Shown here: in pieces, positions 52,416-59,142 of the stretch
Position numbering within the stretch: position 1 is the stretch's first letter
How the letters are laid out: every line of letters begins with the position of its first letter
Origin: Candidatus Dormiibacterota bacterium
GTDB taxonomy: Bacteria > Chloroflexota > Dormibacteria > Aeolococcales > Aeolococcaceae
Assembly (NCBI GenBank): GCA_963718525.1
Contig: OY970355.1
Span: 2,720,001 to 2,784,000 of the forward strand
Direction: 5' to 3'
Length of the DNA stretch: 64,000 nt
Notes under the pieces: model-generated
Told to the model about the DNA's origin: nothing
Databases searched by the model: none
What the model saw: only the letters and a program-made list of their open reading frames with translations
Position numbers and translations under genes: made by a program

Positions 52416-53810
52416 ATGCAGCCCTCCGCGCTGACCACCATCGGCTACATGCTGACCGCGATCAGCTTCATGTTCGGCATCCAATTGCTGCGCTCGCCGG
52501 CGACGGCGAGGACAGGAAATCGCATTGCGGCGATCGGCATGCTCCTCGTGCTCGGCATCACCGCAGCGCTCATTCACAACACGAGCAACTGGCCGCTGAT
52601 CATTCCTCCGATCGTCGTCGGTACGGCCATCGGCGCGGTGTCGGCGCGGCTCGTGCGGATGACCGCCATGCCGCAGATGGTGGCGCTGTTCAACGGCATG
52701 GGCGGCGGCTCGGCCGCGCTCATCGCCGTGCAGGACTTCCGCACCGCCGTGGCCCACGGGACCGCGACACCCGATATCGCGTGGGCGATCATGGTGAGCT
52801 GCGTGATCGGCTCACTCAGCTTTGCGGGCAGCCTGGTTGCCTTCGCAAAGCTGCAGGAATTGATGCCCGGGCGGCCGCTGACCTATCGGTTGCAGAGCGC
52901 CGTGAACGGGTTGCTGCTGCTGGTCATTCTCGCGCTCGGCGTCTACCTCGTCGTCGCCAACCAGAACCTGACGCTGTTCACCGTGTTCGTCATCCTTGCA
53001 CTGATCCTCGGCGTGCTGTTCGTAGTGCCGATCGGCGGCGCCGACATGCCCGTGATCATCTCGCTGCTCAACTCGTTCACGGAACTCGCCGCCGCCAGCA
53101 CGGGGTTCGTGCTCAGCAATGACGTGCTCATCGTCAGCGGTGCGCTGGTGGGTGCGTCGGGAACCATCCTCACCCTGGCGATGAGCAAGGCGATGAACCG
53201 ATCGCTGTTCAACGTGCTCTTCAGCGGCTTCGGTTCCAAGATCGAGTCCGCCGGCAGCGCGGCCGGCACTGATGGCGGCAGCATCCATCCAACCACCGTC
53301 GAGGACGTTGCCCCGCTGCTCGCGTTCGCGCAACTCGTGGTGTTCGTCCCCGGCTACGGCATGGCCGTCGCGCGTGCGCAGCACGAGGTCAAGGAGCTCG
53401 CCGACGAGCTCGAGAAGCGCGGAGTGACTGTCGAATACGCGATTCACCCTGTCGCTGGACGCATGCCCGGTCACATGAACGTCCTGCTGGCCGAGGCCAA
53501 CGTGCCCTATCCACAGCTCAAGGAGATGGATGAGGTCAACGGTGACTTCCCCCGAACCGACGTGGCGGTCGTGATCGGTGCCAATGACGTCGTCAACCCC
53601 GCGGCACGCACCCAGACCAACAGTCCCATCTATGGGATGCCCATCCTCAACGTCGACCAGGCGAAAACCGTCGTGGTGATCAAGCGCAGCATGGCGCCGG
53701 GATTCGCGGGCGTTGACAACCCGCTGTTCTATAAGCCGAACACCCTCATGTTGTTCGGCGACGCACGCACCGCCGTCGCTTCACTGATCGCCGAGGTCAA
53801 GAAGCAGTAG
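52416..53810 (+). CDS. pntB: NAD(P) transhydrogenase subunit beta
   Basis: MTAMPQMVA, IGGADMPV, HPVAGRMPGHMNV and GANDVVNP motifs. Confidence 0.95.
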   Translation: MQPSALTTIGYMLTAISFMFGIQLLRSPATARTGNRIAAIGMLLVLGITAALIHNTSNWPLIIPPIVVGTAIGAVSARLVRMTAMPQMVALFNGMGGGSAALIAVQDFRTAVAHGTATPDIAWAIMVSCVIGSLSFAGSLVAFAKLQELMPGRPLTYRLQSAVNGLLLLVILALGVYLVVANQNLTLFTVFVILALILGVLFVVPIGGADMPVIISLLNSFTELAAASTGFVLSNDVLIVSGALVGASGTILTLAMSKAMNRSLFNVLFSGFGSKIESAGSAAGTDGGSIHPTTVEDVAPLLAFAQLVVFVPGYGMAVARAQHEVKELADELEKRGVTVEYAIHPVAGRMPGHMNVLLAEANVPYPQLKEMDEVNGDFPRTDVAVVIGANDVVNPAARTQTNSPIYGMPILNVDQAKTVVVIKRSMAPGFAGVDNPLFYKPNTLMLFGDARTAVASLIAEVKKQ

Positions 53811-54198
53811 GCGGCAGTTTCCCGGCGGACGCGACGCTGCGCAGGGCATTGAGCAGGTCCGCCGGCGCGGTGTCCTTCACGACATAGCCGACGGCGCCGC
53901 TCTTCAACGCTTCCACCATGCGCTCGTGGCCGCCAAATGAGGTCAGCATCATCACCCGGGTACCCGGTGCCTTCTCGACGAGCCGCCGGGTCGCCTCGAT
54001 GCCGCCCATGCCGGGCATGGACAGATCCATCAACACCACGTCAGGGTGGAGCTCCTGAGCCATCTCGAGGGCCTGTTCGCCCGAATCGGCGAGGCCGACC
54101 ACCTCGATGTCAGGCTCGTGACCGAGAAACGAGGCAAGCCCCTTGCGGACGACCGGGTGGTCGTCCACGATCATGACGCGAGTCGCTTGAGGGGCCAT
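53797..54198 (-). CDS. NarL-type response regulator, receiver domain only
   Basis: DDHPVVR, DVVLMD..MP, T and K motifs; ends at 133 aa with no LuxR HTH. Confidence 0.85.
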   Translation of the reverse strand: MAPQATRVMIVDDHPVVRKGLASFLGHEPDIEVVGLADSGEQALEMAQELHPDVVLMDLSMPGMGGIEATRRLVEKAPGTRVMMLTSFGGHERMVEALKSGAVGYVVKDTAPADLLNALRSVASAGKLPPTAS

Positions 54199-54210
54199 CC
54201 GTCACCCACT

Positions 54211-55710
54211 CTACTCGATGGGCAGCGTCAAAACGACAAGCGTTCCTCGACCCGGTTCGGAGTCGATGGTGAGCGTGCCTCCGGCGTCCTCGGCGAGCTC
54301 GACGATTGCCGCGGTGCCGAGGTGTCCTTCGGCTCTTCGGCGCTCGACGTCCTTCTCGCTGAAGCCTTTTCCGTCGTCCTCGATGCTGAGGACGGCGGAG
54401 CCGTCCTCCGTGGTGAGATGCACTTTCACGTTCTTTGCGTGCGCGTGCGCCACGACGTTGCGAAGGATCTCGTGCGCCACCCGGAAGATGAGCGCTCCGC
54501 GGTCTTCACGAAGCCTGAGATTCGGCGGCAGGTCGAGCTCAGTGTTGGTTCCCTTGCGCTTCATCTCGCGCAACACCTCGAGGAGCGCAGCCTGAAGGCC
54601 CTCCCGGCGAAGCGTCGGCGGCGCCAGTTCGATGATCAGCGTGCGCAGATCCTTCATGGCGCCGCGGGTCTCCGTCGCTGAGATTTCCAGAAGCTCGAGC
54701 AGGTTGTTGTCGCCATGCTTGTCGTCCGGCGTCAGGCGCAGATGGGACGCCTCAGCGGACAGCGCGAAGGCCATCCCGGCCAGGTTCTGGACCACTCCGT
54801 CATGAAGGTCGCGAGCGATGCGTCGCCGCTCCGCCTCGGAGGCTTCGACCGCTTTTTGGAGCAGTTCCTCGCGTTCCTTCTGATGCGCGGCGCGCTGCTC
54901 CTCGTAGGCGTTCACGCGACGAGCGAAGATGATGAGGAAGCCGTGCAGCAGGATGACCGGCGCCAGTAGGGCCATGAATCCCACGGTTTTGGCGTCGTTG
55001 TACATGGTCACGAAGGCGAATGCAGCGAAACCGTAGCCGATGCTGTATGGGAGTACCGACAGACGTCCTCGCAGGACGCGCGTGATGGGGACGTGGGGGT
55101 CCGACAGGTGAATGACCACTGCGACGAAGCCGGAGTTCACCGTGAAGTGGACGAATCCCGCGGCCAGCCCCGCCAGCAGGGCTGAACCTGTTCCGCGTCC
55201 GTTGCCGGGACCGTTGACCCACACGAAGACGAGCCACGCCGCGACGTTGGCAATGAATTCGTTCGCCATGTTGAAGCTCGTTCGAAACCAACCGTTGTGG
55301 TTGCGAACGGATACGCCGATCGGCTCGGCGAGTGCGCCGACCGCCGCGCCTGCGGGACCGAACGTCACCGAAAGGCCGAGGTGGACGAACGCCGTCGGAA
55401 CCCACGAGACATTTGCCGGCGGAGCTGACCTGATCGCGAAGACGGCCATCAGGAAGATGGTCATCCCCGCCACCACGAAGGTGGTGTAGTCGACGGTCAC
55501 CCGCACCCTCAGCACGGAGATCACCGCTATGGCGATTGCCGCCACGACCGTCGCGCCGACATACGCAACCAGCCCAAGGTTGTAGTCGACTGGTCCGAGC
55601 GCCGGCGACTTGGGGAGAAGGTCCAGGCGCCGAATGGCCAGCACTGCGCTGCGAAACCAACCGCCCTTTTCAGCCCCATGCGTCCGCGGCGCGATGATGT
55701 CCTGCGCCAT
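54211..55710 (-). CDS. HisKA_3 sensor histidine kinase with multi-TM integral membrane sensor domain
   Basis: ERRRIARDLHD H-box, E..RNVVAH, DDGKGF and GGTL..S.PG.GT; N-terminal hydrophobic helices. Confidence 0.9.
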   Translation of the reverse strand: MAQDIIAPRTHGAEKGGWFRSAVLAIRRLDLLPKSPALGPVDYNLGLVAYVGATVVAAIAIAVISVLRVRVTVDYTTFVVAGMTIFLMAVFAIRSAPPANVSWVPTAFVHLGLSVTFGPAGAAVGALAEPIGVSVRNHNGWFRTSFNMANEFIANVAAWLVFVWVNGPGNGRGTGSALLAGLAAGFVHFTVNSGFVAVVIHLSDPHVPITRVLRGRLSVLPYSIGYGFAAFAFVTMYNDAKTVGFMALLAPVILLHGFLIIFARRVNAYEEQRAAHQKEREELLQKAVEASEAERRRIARDLHDGVVQNLAGMAFALSAEASHLRLTPDDKHGDNNLLELLEISATETRGAMKDLRTLIIELAPPTLRREGLQAALLEVLREMKRKGTNTELDLPPNLRLREDRGALIFRVAHEILRNVVAHAHAKNVKVHLTTEDGSAVLSIEDDGKGFSEKDVERRRAEGHLGTAAIVELAEDAGGTLTIDSEPGRGTLVVLTLPIE

Positions 55711-56002
55711 GCGACCGATCCTATTCCGCTCGCGCAAGACGACAGGGGTTGCGTGACAACATTGTCAGCGCGTCACGGAGAAAACCCTGTCCCATCCTCA
55801 CGTTTGACGCGTTGTTTCGCGTGCAGCGCGTCGCTCGCGTCAGTAATGTCAACGCGAAAACTCAGCGAAGAAATGTGAACGTGAGATCAGACGTCTGGTC
55901 TTAAGCCCAAAGAACCTCCGCAGGGTTACAGTACGCGCAACACCCACGCGCCGACGGTCAGGTCTCACGCTACCCGACGGCGCATTTTCTTAGGAGGTTC
56001 CC

Positions 56003-56035
56003 ATGGCTACTTGGGGCGACGTCGACAACTGGTAG
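56003..56035 (+). CDS. putative micropeptide MATWGDVDNW
   Basis: TAGGAGG-TTCCC-ATG GCT ACT TGG GGC GAC GTC GAC AAC TGG TAG in an otherwise intergenic region. Confidence 0.6.
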   Translation: MATWGDVDNW

Positions 56036-56092
56036 ACCCTAGGGTTGCCCGGCACTCACTGTAGAGCGCCGGTGTGACGATCTATTGGGTAA

Positions 56093-57466
56093 TTGCGTGA
56101 CAGGCCTTTAACGGGTCGATCGCGTCATTATCACGGAGGGGGCCCACGGGCGGGCTGCCGGGTGCGCAACTGCGGCGCATTCGGCTCCGGGTTGGGTCCG
56201 CTCGCGTACGCTTGCGTCGCGATTGAGCACTCCAAAAAGGAAACGACGCTGAGGTCCTCGGCGGATGCGTCCACCGACCGTTTGAGCACGCATCGAGGTG
56301 TGCTGAGGCCCCCTGTTCGACTGCTCATCGCTGCTGGGACGTCCTTCTACGGGGACTGGCTCACGACGGTGGCCCTGGTCGTGCTCCTCTACCGCGTGAC
56401 CCAGTCCCCGCTCGGACCCGCTGTGTACATGCTCGCCCGGGTGGCGCCCAGATTGATCGGACCATTCCCGGGCGGCGCGCTCGCTGATCGGTTCGGACCC
56501 GCCCGTATCGCGGCCGTCTGCGCGGTGCTGCAGGGGCTGCTGACCGCATCAATCGTGGTGCTTGCCGATACCGGGCTCATCTGGCCGATCTTTGTGGTGG
56601 TGGCGTTGGCCCAATTCCTGAGCTCTGCCGCGCAACCGTGCTACGGGGCCCTGGTCCCCCGGGTCACCGATGCGTCGGGCCTGGGCAGGATCCAGGGCAT
56701 CTTCGCGGCGCTGAACAGCTCCAGCCTGATGATCTCGCCGGTGATCGGTGCGCTGCTGCTCCCCTTCCTGGCCCCGGAGGTGCTGATCGCCATCGACGCC
56801 GGCACATTCTTCGTCGCGGCCGCACTGGTTGGATCACTCGCCGGCGTCGGACGGGCGACGCCAGGGCAGGCTGGGAGCACTCGGGGCATGTCGGCGGGGA
56901 TTCCGATCGTCTTTCGCGATCCGATGCTTCGTTTCCTCGGCGCCGCGTACATCTCCAACGCCGCTGCGGTGACCGCCTTGCAGGCCGTGCTGGTCGTTGC
57001 CGCGGCGCAACGCTTCGGCCATGACACAGCGGTGGGCTGGCTCTACGCCGCGGTTGGAGCCGGTTCGCTGCTGGGAACGTTCCCGGTGATCCGTCGAACG
57101 CCCGAACGAGTGACGCAGCTCCCGATCATCGCGGCGACCGTTCTTGAACTCGTCCCACTGGCCGCGTTCGTCTTCGTGACGAACATCGCACTCGCAATCG
57201 TCCTCCTGTTCATCAGCGCCACCGGGGCTACGCTGTACCAGACGAGAGGCGCGGTCGGCCTGCAGCAGCGCGTGCCACGCGACCTGTTGGGACGGACGAC
57301 CGCAGTCGAGCGCTTCGCGGGATCGCTCGGGATGCTGCTTGGCGCAATTGCCGCGGTCTCGCTGGTTCAACCGCTCGGCTGGCAATCGACGGTGCTCATT
57401 GTCTGCGCGCTTGGCGCGACCTTGCTGTTCGTCACAGCCGTGAGCGAGGGCGACAGTCCGGACTGA
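56093..57466 (+). CDS. MFS transporter (DHA3/MFS_3-like exporter), paralog 1
   Basis: S.YGDWL, GGALADRFG motif A, QQRVP.DLLGR; ~12 TM. The true start is probably later (~56250-56300). Confidence 0.85.
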   Translation: MRDRPLTGRSRHYHGGGPRAGCRVRNCGAFGSGLGPLAYACVAIEHSKKETTLRSSADASTDRLSTHRGVLRPPVRLLIAAGTSFYGDWLTTVALVVLLYRVTQSPLGPAVYMLARVAPRLIGPFPGGALADRFGPARIAAVCAVLQGLLTASIVVLADTGLIWPIFVVVALAQFLSSAAQPCYGALVPRVTDASGLGRIQGIFAALNSSSLMISPVIGALLLPFLAPEVLIAIDAGTFFVAAALVGSLAGVGRATPGQAGSTRGMSAGIPIVFRDPMLRFLGAAYISNAAAVTALQAVLVVAAAQRFGHDTAVGWLYAAVGAGSLLGTFPVIRRTPERVTQLPIIAATVLELVPLAAFVFVTNIALAIVLLFISATGATLYQTRGAVGLQQRVPRDLLGRTTAVERFAGSLGMLLGAIAAVSLVQPLGWQSTVLIVCALGATLLFVTAVSEGDSPD

Positions 57467-57661
57467 CCGTCCCGGGCGCTCATCAGGTGCGAGTCAACGT
57501 GCTGGGTAGGTTGGCAAAGAATTGTACAAGTTGCGTGAACGGTTGTTAACTCGCCCCAAGCCCGCCGAACGTGGCGAGTGTCAACCAGCCACCCTGAAGT
57601 GGCCACCTCGCCATTGATGTGTCGAGAATTCTGGTGTCGGCGGTATCCATTGGAGGCGGTT

Positions 57662-57688
57662 ATGGCGGACGGCGCGGCCTGGGGCTGA
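57662..57688 (+). CDS. putative micropeptide MADGAAWG
   Basis: GGAGG-CGGTT-ATG GCG GAC GGC GCG GCC TGG GGC TGA. Confidence 0.55.
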   Translation: MADGAAWG

Positions 57689-57704
57689 GCCCCACTTCGT
57701 TGAC

Positions 57705-57727
57705 CCCCGAGCTTGCTCGGGGTTTTT
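57705..57727 (+). terminator. intrinsic terminator between micropeptide 2 and MFS paralog 2
   Basis: CCCCGAG-CTTG-CTCGGGG-TTTTT. Confidence 0.8.
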
Positions 57728-57747
57728 GAATCCGTTGGTGCGACGTC

Positions 57748-59142
57748 GTGAGTCAGCTCACGACGTCGCGCTTCGTTTCGGCCCCTGCACCCGGAGTGGA
57801 TATGCCGATCGACGCGGCGCGATTCTTTCCTCGAGCCGCAGGCACGCTGCCGAAAGCTGATCGATCAGCGCGGCTGCTGCTTGCGGCCGGAGTCTCGACG
57901 TACGGCGATTGGTTGACCGTGGTCGCGCTCACCGTCCTGCTGTTCGGGATCACCCATCAGGCAGAGGCCCCCGCGCTCTACATCGTGGCGCGATTCGCCC
58001 CAAAGGTGCTCGGTCCAAACCTCGGCGGCGCGCTCGCCGATCGCTTTGGACCGAGCCGGGTCGCCGGCTGGTCAGCACTCGCGCAGTGCGTGCTGGTCTC
58101 CGGCATCGTCATCCTTGCGAACACCGGGACCGTCTGGGCGATTCTCGTGACGGTGGCCTGCGCGGGGTTCCTCGGATCCGTCGCACAGCCGGCGTACAGC
58201 GCATCCATTCCGCGAGTCACTCCGCCGGCCCGGCTCCTGCGCGTCAACGCGATCTACAGCGGTCTGTTCGAATCGAGCGTCCTCGTTGCACCGGTGATCG
58301 GTGCGCTCGTGATGCCGCTCATCAAGCCGCAGATCCTCGTCAGTGCCGACGCAGCCTCCTTCCTGATCGCAGGAGTGCTCATGCTCTCGCTCCGGGTCGG
58401 TCCTGCGGAGACCGTTGCATCGCGCGCCGGCGATCGCTCAGGTGCACGAGCCGTGCTGGCTCGAGACCCGATGCTGCGTGCGCTCGCCGCCTCGTTCTTC
58501 TGCAGCGCCGCTGCGATCACGACGCTCCAGGCAGTGCTGGTCGTCGCCGCCGTCCAGCGCTTCGGGAGCGCCACCGACGTCGGCTGGCTCTACGCGGCTG
58601 TCGGGGGCGGTGAAGTCATCGGCAGTCTCGTGCTCCTGCGGTCGAGCCCGCGCACCATCCGCGCTCGGGGTGTCGCCTTCGGCTTTCTCGTCGAGGTGAT
58701 CCCCATCGGCCTCTTCGCTTTCATCAGCGGCATGCTCCCGGCGATCGGCCTGCTCTTCGTCAGCACCGCAGCCGCCGCGATCTATCAAACACGCGGCCAG
58801 ACCGCCCTCCAGCAGCGCGTCCCCCCGGAGATGCTCGGGAGGGTCAATGGCCTGCTTCGCATGCTGCTCTACCTCGGCATGCTGGTCGGAGCCGTCGCCG
58901 CTGCAGTCCTCGTCGAGGCGATCGGCTGGACGGTGCTCGTGCTGGGAGCCACGACGGTCTCGGTCGTCGCCTTCGTCCCCGCGGCCCTCACCTACCGGCG
59001 GGGTCCACGGCGTCCCGACGAGGTCAACCTCGCCGGGACACCAATGGTGCCGGTCTCAGGTCAGACCGCGACCGCCTCGCGGGCTTCCTTCTCGATCGGC
59101 AGGCCCACGGAGTTTCCCCACTCGCTCCACGACCCGTCGTAG
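57748..59142 (+). CDS. MFS transporter (DHA3/MFS_3-like exporter), paralog 2
   Basis: STYGDWL, GGALADRFG and QQRVPPEMLGR; colinear with the 56093-57466 protein. Confidence 0.85.
   Translation: MSQLTTSRFVSAPAPGVDMPIDAARFFPRAAGTLPKADRSARLLLAAGVSTYGDWLTVVALTVLLFGITHQAEAPALYIVARFAPKVLGPNLGGALADRFGPSRVAGWSALAQCVLVSGIVILANTGTVWAILVTVACAGFLGSVAQPAYSASIPRVTPPARLLRVNAIYSGLFESSVLVAPVIGALVMPLIKPQILVSADAASFLIAGVLMLSLRVGPAETVASRAGDRSGARAVLARDPMLRALAASFFCSAAAITTLQAVLVVAAVQRFGSATDVGWLYAAVGGGEVIGSLVLLRSSPRTIRARGVAFGFLVEVIPIGLFAFISGMLPAIGLLFVSTAAAAIYQTRGQTALQQRVPPEMLGRVNGLLRMLLYLGMLVGAVAAAVLVEAIGWTVLVLGATTVSVVAFVPAALTYRRGPRRPDEVNLAGTPMVPVSGQTATASRASFSIGRPTEFPHSLHDPS

Follow-up and report, generated by a model that had tools for sequence, protein, structure and literature searches.

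What might two very short, tryptophan-bearing open reading frames (sORFs) do when each lies ahead of its own gene for a membrane pump and both face a membrane-anchored sensor kinase encoded on the opposite strand? The question is raised by a locus in a 64,000-nucleotide stretch of contig OY970355.1 (positions 2,720,001 to 2,784,000; assembly GCA_963718525.1, Candidatus Dormiibacterota bacterium), which we refer to as the window. The locus consists of a receiver gene and a histidine kinase gene on the minus strand and, divergently, of sORF1, the major facilitator superfamily (MFS) gene MFS-1, sORF2, and the paralogous gene MFS-2. A preliminary description had taken these genes for a quorum-sensing-like system in which the short peptides are exported by the MFS proteins and sensed by the kinase. 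We report here that both sORFs are conserved coding sequences, that they stand in structured leader RNAs, and that sORF-pump units recur across the bacterial family. We favor, at a probability of roughly 0.47, the reading that the sORFs are translated leader peptides of two homologous 5′ leaders, each of which controls its own DHA3-like pump in cis.

Both sORFs are conserved coding sequences

We found sORF1 in all 27 genomes of the genus with a readable upstream region and sORF2 in all 35 genomes that were readable there. The copies of sORF1 conform to M-A-[TNS]-W-G-D-x-[DEA]-[NSTA]-W, optionally followed by one more residue, and belong to what we call class A; those of sORF2 conform to M-[AT]-x-G-x-[AG]-W-[GAS] and belong to class B. 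In sORF2, tryptophan (Trp) is the last or penultimate residue in 32 copies and third from the end in the other three, in which one extra residue follows W-G.

The codons of sORF1, compared in its 27 copies (24 of them distinct), show selection at the level of the peptide. Met1, Trp4, Gly5, and Trp10 (codons 1, 4, 5, and 10) were invariant. Ala2 was written with all four of its codons, giving 167 pairwise synonymous differences and not one nonsynonymous difference, and Asp6 with both of its codons (135 synonymous, 0 nonsynonymous), while the Gly5 codon was GGC in 27/27 copies and showed no synonymous variation. Residue changes are found at position 3 and at positions 7-9, within limited sets, and the stop codon is variously TAG, TAA, or TGA. 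By parsimony, positions 7, 8, and 9 underwent 13, 6, and 7 amino-acid changes on the tree, compared with 4-6 at synonymous sites; codon 7 changes at or above the silent-site rate, which with 27 taxa and saturation leaves neutral and positive selection inseparable. In sORF2, indels come in multiples of three and the Ala, Thr, and Gly codons vary synonymously. The whole 3.34-Mb genome, a single contig searched on both strands, contains only 315 sORFs of 4-20 aa led by GGAGG, 21 of which have Trp as the last or second to last residue. The pattern in the sORFs is that of coding sequence, beyond chance. The preliminary description had looked to homologs for recurring W(G) peptides with synonymous variation, and such peptides are what the collected homologs contain.

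sORF-pump units recur across the family

We searched for pump homologs (E≤1e-35; tallies include three unpublished genomes) in 84 other genomes of the same family and in 216 genomes of four other families of the class. Homologs were detected in 68 of the 84 genomes and in none of the 216 sampled from the four other families. From 15 genera other than that of the window we excised 40 pump loci, and 31 of these carry, within 700 nt upstream and on the sense strand, a sORF that is led by a Shine-Dalgarno (SD) sequence and ends in W or W-x. The antisense strand of the same 40 upstream segments gave no Trp-ending SD-led sORF (0/40), and other 715-nt segments of these loci, taken as a control, gave 31 Trp-ending sORFs in 478. 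Among the nine loci lacking a Trp-ending sORF, six belong to a single genus, in which the pump lies directly behind another gene, one is at a contig edge, and two are extra paralogs. Wherever the pump gene opens its transcript, a long structured leader with a Trp-ending sORF comes ahead of it.

Across these genera, class A sORFs (the sORF1 type) have 7-15 residues, start with M-A-T/S-W in many genera, and adjoin the sensor gene, and class B sORFs (the sORF2 type) have 6-9 residues (e.g., M-[TS]-N-G-W-x). The sole feature common to all sORFs is a Trp 0-2 residues from the end. The grouping of sORFs, MFS pumps, and a polytopic membrane sensor, which the preliminary description had proposed from one locus, is a linkage that extends across a bacterial family.

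Further ORFs were seen beside other MFS paralogs. A third MFS paralog in one genome of the genus is preceded by a 58-aa ORF (L170:1468-1644, minus strand) that has 7 Trp and 9 His residues, is rich in Asp, repeats W-x-H-S-D-G-D, and ends in H-W-stop; it adjoins an IS256-like transposase gene. In the genome of the window, outside the window itself (G000:C1:331575-331800), an AT-rich stretch contains a 48-aa ORF, preceded by a strong SD, and then a perfect 13-bp hairpin. At the same site a GTG-started 10-codon ORF ending in N-W-G-stop abuts the start of a distant MFS paralog (26% identity); the arrangement may be due to chance.

The sORFs stand in structured leader RNAs

Both intergenic regions are structured RNAs and not DNA operators. 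Consensus folding with RNAalifold (18 sequences for leader 1 and 20 for leader 2) showed leader 1 to open with a 5′ hairpin, to leave the sORF unpaired, and to continue with hairpins A, B, and D. Double-sided compensation was detected at 16 of 52 pairs in leader 1 and at 4 of 30 pairs in leader 2, and many of the G-U pairs are sensible on the plus strand only. In hairpin A, up to six sequences per pair show double-sided compensatory changes. Hairpin D has no U-tract. The intrinsic terminator T1 starts 16 nt after the sORF2 stop and shows compensatory changes at two pairs. The leaders that head sORF-pump units are 130-320 nt long and contain covarying hairpins. The two leaders are homologous, each consisting of a sORF, a hairpin, an ATCC(R)TTGG motif, and then a long hairpin, and this plan is kept in other genera, where hairpin B has a homolog with a GYAAC loop; in one group of these genera a U-run comes after that hairpin. 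Searches of Rfam returned nothing at the gathering threshold for window positions 55600-58000 (best E 0.19) or for eight related loci, and nhmmer searches with both leader alignments found no further copies of either leader in the window's own genome. Matches to the second-leader motif outside the genus (eight, each with one mismatch) were all in unrelated sequence and were discarded.

Metatranscriptome contigs from two runs of one study, compared with a 3.5-kb stretch of the locus, cover the first leader. Contig X1 matches 55940-56195 with 0 mismatches, and contig X2 matches 55939-56141 and then continues as a variant. Contigs are weak on RNA ends and levels; within that limit, both begin 7-8 nt past the TACAGT hexamer and X1 ends just beyond hairpin D. 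In these two runs sORF2 and both pump bodies were uncovered, although absence from contigs is not evidence. Most of the stretch is covered by a third run, which is perhaps that of the source sample. Taken together, the contigs of this one study suggest a discrete leader RNA and little pump mRNA.

Upstream of the first leader, the conserved inverted repeats at 55745-55905 are candidate sites for some DNA-binding regulator; the local response regulator lacks a DNA-binding domain. One consensus promoter match lies in the conserved box ahead of sORF2 (57514-57552), but on the minus strand.

We also observed that class B leaders of three genera (L118, L119, L156, L158, L161, L162, L167, and L168) have, right after the stop codon, a highly conserved stretch of ~24 nt that is C-rich and almost G-free, followed by a strongly conserved GC-rich hairpin. 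A Rho-loading site and an anti-SD element are two possible roles for these ~24 nt.

The pumps are genetically linked to a fast-evolving membrane sensor

The best NCBIfam match of both pumps is TIGR00900 (DHA3 drug:H+ antiporters), at 128 and 135 bits, below its cut-off of 319.6, with weak matches to Mef, Tet(V), Tap, and EntS. A sequence search with MFS-2 against solved structures gave 0 matches. Homology in MFS-1 begins at 56315, and its start is probably a conserved CTG at 56249: an SD-like GGAGG(G)A followed by an invariant CTG (56249-56251) is found in 20/20 aligned loci, which share no other conserved start, and indels in the in-frame stretch 5′ of this CTG are not multiples of three. Orthologs of MFS-2 head an operon composed of sORF, MFS gene, response regulator (REC plus GerE), and histidine kinase in three other genera (4/4 loci examined).

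In predicted structure, the sensor domain of the kinase resembles MASE9. A search of Atlas predicted structures returned template-modeling (TM) scores of 0.70-0.83, the neighbors being MASE9 proteins fused to HD-GYP, GGDEF, or kinases. The MASE9 profile (PF20972) gave 0 matches for the window protein and matched 2 of 30 relatives at E≤1 (best 0.008). When an AlphaFold model of the domain (pLDDT, the predicted local distance difference test, 81) was used as the query of a VIA structure search, the top 15 rows were all S-components of energy-coupling factor (ECF) transporters (Z 8.3-13.6 over 152-192 residues), whose six-helix membrane fold the model superposes in full, and the next row scored 6.8. 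Foldseek gave a weaker likeness to S-components (E 0.016, TM by target about 0.6) and nothing in the PDB at E≤0.001. The predicted likeness is one of fold only, not of membership as a transporter subunit, and the available portion of bioRxiv 10.1101/2021.11.05.467447 does not mention such a fold for MASE9. A complex prediction of MFS-1 with the sensor domain scored 0.00, a value that without control runs weighs neither for nor against binding.

The kinase half has UhpB among its NCBIfam matches, and the REC part of the receiver is NarL-like, with 87-98% identity within the genus. In other genera, the regulator orthologs next to this kinase likewise stop 3-12 residues past REC (13/13 checked). 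Mean pairwise distances within the genus were 0.47 for the sensor domain, 0.20 for the kinase half, 0.30 for MFS-1, 0.26 for MFS-2, 0.09 for the receiver, and 0.07 for PntB, making the sensor domain the fastest-evolving piece of the locus.

The sensor domain was found in 95 of 116 other genomes of the family. Fifteen genera have both pump and sensor, six have neither, and one, represented by a single incomplete genome, has the sensor only. When the tables of pump and sensor places were compared by eye, 56 of 63 pump places outside the genus (three of them in unpublished genomes) had a sensor no more than about 2.5 kb away on the same contig; of the seven others, four are at contig ends. The sensor domain is joined to different outputs: a kinase with a receiver-only protein, divergent from a class A sORF-pump unit; an HD-GYP protein, upstream of the pump on the same strand; a PAS-GGDEF-EAL protein, downstream of a sORF-less pump; or the kinase of a class B operon (sORF-pump-regulator-kinase) in three genera. 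The regulator with REC and GerE occurs only in these separate class B operons of other genera.

Components of the module can also be missing. All 35 genomes of the genus have sORF2 and MFS-2 without a sensor of their own, as does one sORF-pump unit in another genus (G101:C36, one of the 63 places), and six of six loci of one genus have pump and sensor without a sORF. The window's own genome contains no ortholog of the class B regulator or kinase; the present genus has lost both, with sORF2-MFS-2 now behind MFS-1. What is conserved at the core of the module is the pump together with an integral-membrane sensor domain, the latter fused to a kinase, HD-GYP, or PAS-GGDEF-EAL. A literature search, whose scope did not extend to subscription journals and supplements, found no account of Trp-ending leader peptides before MFS pumps, of the pump-sensor module, or of Dormibacterota small ORFs.

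A link of the module to indole or tryptophan was considered and rejected. A tryptophanase-family gene is found in 28 of 116 other genomes of the family; some genera have it but not the module, and most genera that have the module lack it. The genome of the window itself encodes an enzyme of the tryptophanase/tyrosine phenol-lyase family (L177:131-1513, minus strand, the same as G000:C1:623030-624412; NF009709, 676 bits).

Layout of the locus

The features are collected in Table 1. The preliminary description of the genes was largely borne out. The positions of the sORFs were reproduced, as were their GGAGG sequences (55993-55997 for sORF1 and 57652-57656 for sORF2), each ending 5 nt 5′ of the ATG. 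The hairpins it had noted after both sORFs were found, the one after sORF2 being a canonical terminator; the two MFS proteins it had called paralogs are 48% identical; and Pfam confirmed the histidine kinase and the receiver on the minus strand. Nor do the neighbors, pntB and a rhodanese gene, encode the protease or modifying enzyme whose absence it had pointed out. Its regulator needs correction, in that the receiver is present but a DNA-binding domain is absent.

Table 1. Features of the pump-sensor locus, in window coordinates
Feature	Position	Strand	Basis and remarks
pntB	before the receiver gene in window order	+	first gene of the locus order
Receiver-only response regulator, 133 aa	53797..54198	-	Pfam: Response_reg alone, residues 8-119
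Sensor histidine kinase (polytopic N-terminal domain, HisKA_3, HATPase_c)	54211..55710	-	Pfam
Kinase sensor domain, residues 1-285	about 54856-55710	-	multi-pass, ~285 residues; no Pfam family match
Palindrome TGACA-N4-TGTCA (repeat itself at 55754-55767)	55753..55768		conserved in the divergent promoter region (alignment IG1, 20 loci); candidate operator
Inverted repeats, with TGACGCG...CGCGTCA at about 55800-55845	about 55795-55845		conserved in the divergent promoter region
GTCTTAAG motif	55897-55904		conserved; a perfect 10-bp palindrome in other genera
-10-like hexamer TACAGT	55927..55932	+	conserved alignment block; putative promoter of the sORF1 leader
Leader RNA, about 255 nt, with sORF1 and four hairpins	55940..56195	+	metatranscriptome contigs
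5′ hairpin just before the sORF1 SD	55948..55983	+	RNAalifold; compensatory changes at pairs that include 18-41 and 19-40 (alignment A2)
sORF1, MATWGDVDNW, stop TAG	56003..56035	+	inside the 590-nt divergent intergenic region
Hairpin A, conserved loop CACUGUAG	56046..56074	+	RNAalifold; 0-12 nt past the sORF1 stop
Long hairpin B, conserved GAUAAC loop	56082..56139	+	RNAalifold; many strand-specific G-U pairs
Hairpin D, 11-14 bp, GC-rich	56152..56188	+	RNAalifold; located 3′-terminally in the leader RNA; candidate for an attenuator or for the RNA's 3′ end
MFS-1, DHA3-like major facilitator	56249..57466	+	Pfam MFS_1/MFS_3
Conserved box upstream of sORF2	57514..57552	+	alignment IG2; possible promoter of the second leader
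sORF2, MADGAAWG, stop TGA	57662..57688	+	inside the 335-nt MFS-1/MFS-2 spacer
Intrinsic terminator T1	57705..57727	+	terminator scan, RNAalifold; 7-bp stem 57705-57722, then TTTTT
Hairpin 2, 15 bp	57738..57771	+	a homolog of leader 1 hairpin B; its G-U pairs are strand-specific
MFS-2, DHA3-like, MFS-1 paralog	57802..59142	+	Pfam, NCBIfam, and pairwise comparison
Rhodanese gene	after MFS-2	convergent	last gene of the locus order

The order pntB, receiver, kinase, and, divergently, MFS-1, MFS-2, with rhodanese last, is conserved across 20 excised loci of the genus, and the pump pair was detected at E≤1e-30 in 21 of 24 other genus genomes sampled. The start of the kinase was placed by alignment at a conserved ATG (MAQD...). 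In one genome (G016, locus L044) the spacer between MFS-1 and MFS-2 measures about 1.1 kb, versus ~0.35 kb elsewhere, and extra sequence is inserted ahead of the sORF2 leader. In L041, L049, L050, L055, L056, and other loci, the MFS-1 or MFS-2 gene is broken across two reading frames; because pntB is likewise split in L043, L045, L049, and L056, these look like assembly frameshifts and not gene decay.

A proposed role for the sORFs as cis-acting leader peptides

The pump is the hub of the module and the layout of the leader is essentially that of mef(E)/mel, and we therefore read the sORFs as cis-acting leader peptides. A promoter about 60 nt upstream of sORF1, or about 110 nt upstream of sORF2, would fire and give a transcript with a strong SD, an ORF of 8-11 codons whose Trp codon comes 0-2 codons before the stop, and conserved hairpins after the ORF, some of which would be of terminator type (T1 past sORF2, B/D past sORF1). 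In the default state transcription would end within the leader, and this would explain a ~255-nt leader RNA without pump mRNA in the RNA libraries. A ribosome held on the sORF would alter downstream folding or termination, and the pump would be made. The ribosome would be held at the stop codon or close to it by the nascent peptide with its Trp, probably in concert with a small molecule. The signal might be a compound that acts on ribosomes and is exported by the pump; free Trp and a metabolite resembling it are further candidates. The sensor would probably report the pump's substrate or state, and probably not a peptide, to a phosphorelay or to cyclic di-GMP (c-di-GMP) signaling. In this scheme we infer the translation of the sORFs, the stalling of the ribosome, the read-through switch, and the identity of the signal.

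Several observations argue for leader peptides. Each sORF heads the leader of its own pump on the sense strand, and each of the paralogous pumps has a sORF of its own; the sORF travels with the pump rather than with the sensor, as in sORF2-MFS-2 and at G101:C36. The leaders are long, covarying, and terminator-bearing, with a hairpin and U-run in another group of genera, and the RNA contigs lie only over 55940-56195. The G-rich Trp-Gly codons (UGGGGC) are complementary to a C-run just past the stop, and at one locus this pairing shows a compensatory GGAG/CUCC change. Directly translated regulatory leader peptides of 6-14 aa are common, and we know of no secreted signals of 6-14 aa that are directly translated. 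The mef(E)/mel attenuator, whose architecture the leaders match, offers a precedent, and DHA3 is the best match of the pumps.

Other observations weigh against this reading. We found no mutually exclusive antiterminator that a stalled ribosome would overlap, only weak and short complementarities, the best alternative helix by RNAalifold having 5 bp (p 0.11), and T1 begins beyond the ribosome footprint. Conservation of sORF1 is strongest at the N terminus (M-A-x-W-G-D) and at the last Trp, and positions 7-9, which are nearest the peptidyl-transferase center at termination, vary fastest; such variability would be unusual for an arrest peptide. The Trp-to-stop distance (0, 1, or 2 codons) and the stop codon both vary, which argues against a precise termination arrest. 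The sensor (0.47) and the pumps (0.26-0.30) evolve much faster than their neighbors (0.07-0.09), as pherotype-type systems do, and the class B operon of three genera resembles peptide-pheromone operons. Finally, the RNA evidence consists of contigs from one study.

Alternative explanations

The interpretation in the preliminary description is partly supported. Its exported signal is, in our judgment, unlikely, though worth taking seriously. The description holds that leaderless Trp peptides of 6-14 aa, probably after removal of Met, are exported by the adjacent MFS protein and sensed by the membrane domain in a quorum-sensing-like loop. The detailed form is a similarly doubtful proposition: DHA3-like MFS proteins would be the exporters, the S-component-like (MASE9-like) domain would capture the peptide in the membrane and pass the signal to the kinase or to c-di-GMP enzymes, and the middle of the peptide, the pump, and the sensor would diversify together between species. 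Such a loop would account for amino-acid-level selection along the whole peptide, with anchors M-A-x-W and W(-G) and a fast-changing middle. It would also account for a hypervariable sensor (0.47) next to a less variable kinase half (0.20), a conserved receiver (0.09), and fast pumps (0.26-0.30), a rate pattern that can be likened to the polymorphic exporter-peptide-sensor blocks of known pheromone systems. Peptide distances track those of the sensor and MFS-1 (Spearman 0.40-0.45) over those of PntB and the receiver (0.1-0.2); the sORF, pump, and sensor are neighbors in most genera, and three genera have the operon sORF-MFS-regulator-kinase, with a helix-turn-helix in the regulator; and in peptide operons a hairpin or terminator past a short structural gene sets stoichiometry. 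What speaks against export is the composition of the module: pump and sensor do without a sORF at 6/6 loci of one genus, and in every one of the 35 genus genomes sORF2 and its pump have no sensor of their own, as is also the case for a sORF-pump unit at one locus elsewhere. The kinase's partner is receiver-only, so that no transcriptional feedback is evident; the predicted fold of the sensor is that of small-molecule binders (ECF S-components); and export gives no part to the conserved, structured 160-300 nt of RNA that separate sORF from pump. The peptide-sensor correlation (0.45), though real in itself, is gone once MFS-1 distance is controlled (partial Mantel 0.02, p 0.39) and is explained by shared local ancestry because the three elements are adjacent on the DNA, although this adjacency and the little signal carried by the slow markers mean that partial Mantel tests do not discriminate. 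We know of no precedent for unprocessed ribosomal signals this short.

The remaining alternatives keep the leader and assign the sORF a different part. A dual-function leader, which would combine attenuation in cis with action in trans inside the cell by the peptide, the ~255-nt RNA, or both (on the pump, the sensor, or other mRNAs, as for peTrpL/rnTrpL), is decidedly unlikely: it would fit peptide-level selection in excess of what stalling needs and a discrete, apparently abundant leader RNA with conserved loop sequences, but it is speculative and without an identified target, and nhmmer found no further leader copies or obvious partner sites in the genome. The available excerpts of PMC7298713 and PMC7968998 do describe a Trp-containing leader peptide that regulates a multidrug efflux operon in trans. 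Classical attenuation, in which the Trp codons sense charged tRNA-Trp, the pumps answer Trp starvation or charging inhibitors, and the peptide sequence is irrelevant, we hold to be very unlikely. Purifying selection acts on Ala2, Gly5, and Asp6 at the amino-acid level, the Trp codons are not tandem, and the last one stands at the very end of the ORF, so that a stalled and a terminating ribosome would differ by only 0-6 nt; moreover, the pump family is of exporter type and no trp genes are nearby. All the same, a leader and terminator architecture is present, and Trp is universal in the sORFs (1-3 per 6-15 residues), a large enrichment of the rarest amino acid. It is hardly credible that the frames are incidental and untranslated, within leaders that are protein- or ligand-binding, riboswitch-like RNAs. 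The hairpins and loop motifs are strongly conserved, as is the GGC of Gly5 in 27/27 copies, which such RNAs would explain, yet the start, stop, SD, and SD spacing are conserved, indels come only in threes, fourfold and twofold sites vary freely while residues are fixed, the sORF region is unpaired in the consensus fold, and no Rfam family matches.

Comparison with known systems

Under any reading, the conserved module of pump and membrane sensor stands, and it provides a first functional context for a MASE9-like domain, beside a DHA3-like pump. ECF S-components are membrane-embedded binders of vitamins and metals, and the predicted S-component-like fold of the sensor points to a membrane-embedded pocket for a small ligand. 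If the leader reading is true, the sORFs would make up a new leader-peptide family, marked by an invariant Trp close to the C terminus, that controls efflux pumps in an uncultured soil phylum, and would provide a handle on pump substrates and a new nascent-peptide/ribosome sensor. If the peptides are exported instead, ribosomal peptides would serve as signals without processing, and small ORFs near transporters would be read differently.

Like ComQXPA and Agr, the locus has a HisKA_3 kinase with a polytopic sensor, adjacent genes for a peptide, an exporter-like protein, and the kinase, a short peptide with a conserved Trp (as in ComX), and a hypervariable sensor half next to a conserved kinase half and regulator. 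Unlike those systems, its sORFs have only 8-11 codons, with neither a leader-bearing precursor nor an enzyme for processing or prenylation; an MFS protein is the candidate for the exporter; the regulator has no DNA-binding domain; and some versions of the module have c-di-GMP enzymes where the kinase would be, or lack a peptide gene. The genetic tie between an MFS-fold protein and a HisKA_3 kinase with a multi-pass N-terminal domain recalls the co-sensor transporters of the UhpABC type, although the sensor domains have no sequence relationship.

TnaC is longer than the sORFs and needs a C-terminal Pro and a defined Trp-to-stop spacing. The sORFs, by contrast, have no Pro and a variable Trp-to-stop distance, and pumps rather than tryptophanase lie downstream; this genome has its tryptophanase-family gene at another place, and the distribution of that gene does not follow that of the module. 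What TnaC shares with the proposed mechanism is stated in the available excerpts of PMC8429421 and PMC8450073, namely, an essential conserved Trp and an arrest at the stop codon that relieves downstream termination. Closer in size are MsrDL and toiL, regulatory upstream ORFs of 6-8 codons that, according to the accessible parts of PMC10314930 and PMC12121999, stall ribosomes at or near the stop and control termination, which for toiL involves Rho. The sORFs are likewise very short, and class B leaders elsewhere have a C-rich, G-poor stretch past the stop, but the sORF sequences are unrelated to either.

On the side of the sensor, bioRxiv 10.1101/2021.11.05.467447, in the portion available, describes MASE9 as a promiscuous sensor, integral to the membrane, that is found fused to HD-GYP, to GGDEF-EAL, and to further outputs, with ligand binding presumed to be intramembrane. 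A HisKA_3 fusion and a constant DHA3-like pump neighborhood, as found here, are not mentioned in that portion, and the sequence match of the kinase sensor to PF20972 is marginal (2/30 members).

The nearest counterpart is the mef(E)/mel attenuator. As described in the available excerpts of PMC4335068, it controls a DHA3 pump from a start site 327 nt upstream, through four stem-loops, an 8-aa leader peptide, and a terminator, and its attenuated leader transcripts are visible by RNA-seq. As with Mef(E)L in those excerpts, a DHA3-type pump lies here behind a leader of ~300 nt with a very short peptide ORF, stem-loops, and a terminator. Unlike Mef(E)L, the sORFs have no macrolide arrest motif of the R-L-R type and have as their hallmark a Trp near the stop; no anti-attenuator structure was found here; the pump is coupled to a membrane sensor protein; and the host belongs to an uncultured phylum, Candidatus Dormibacterota. 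On the leader reading, and by analogy with mef(E)/mel, the locus would be a new member of a familiar class, the leader-peptide attenuators of efflux pumps, made unusual by its Trp hallmark, its partner with a MASE9-like, S-component-like fold, and its uncultured host phylum.

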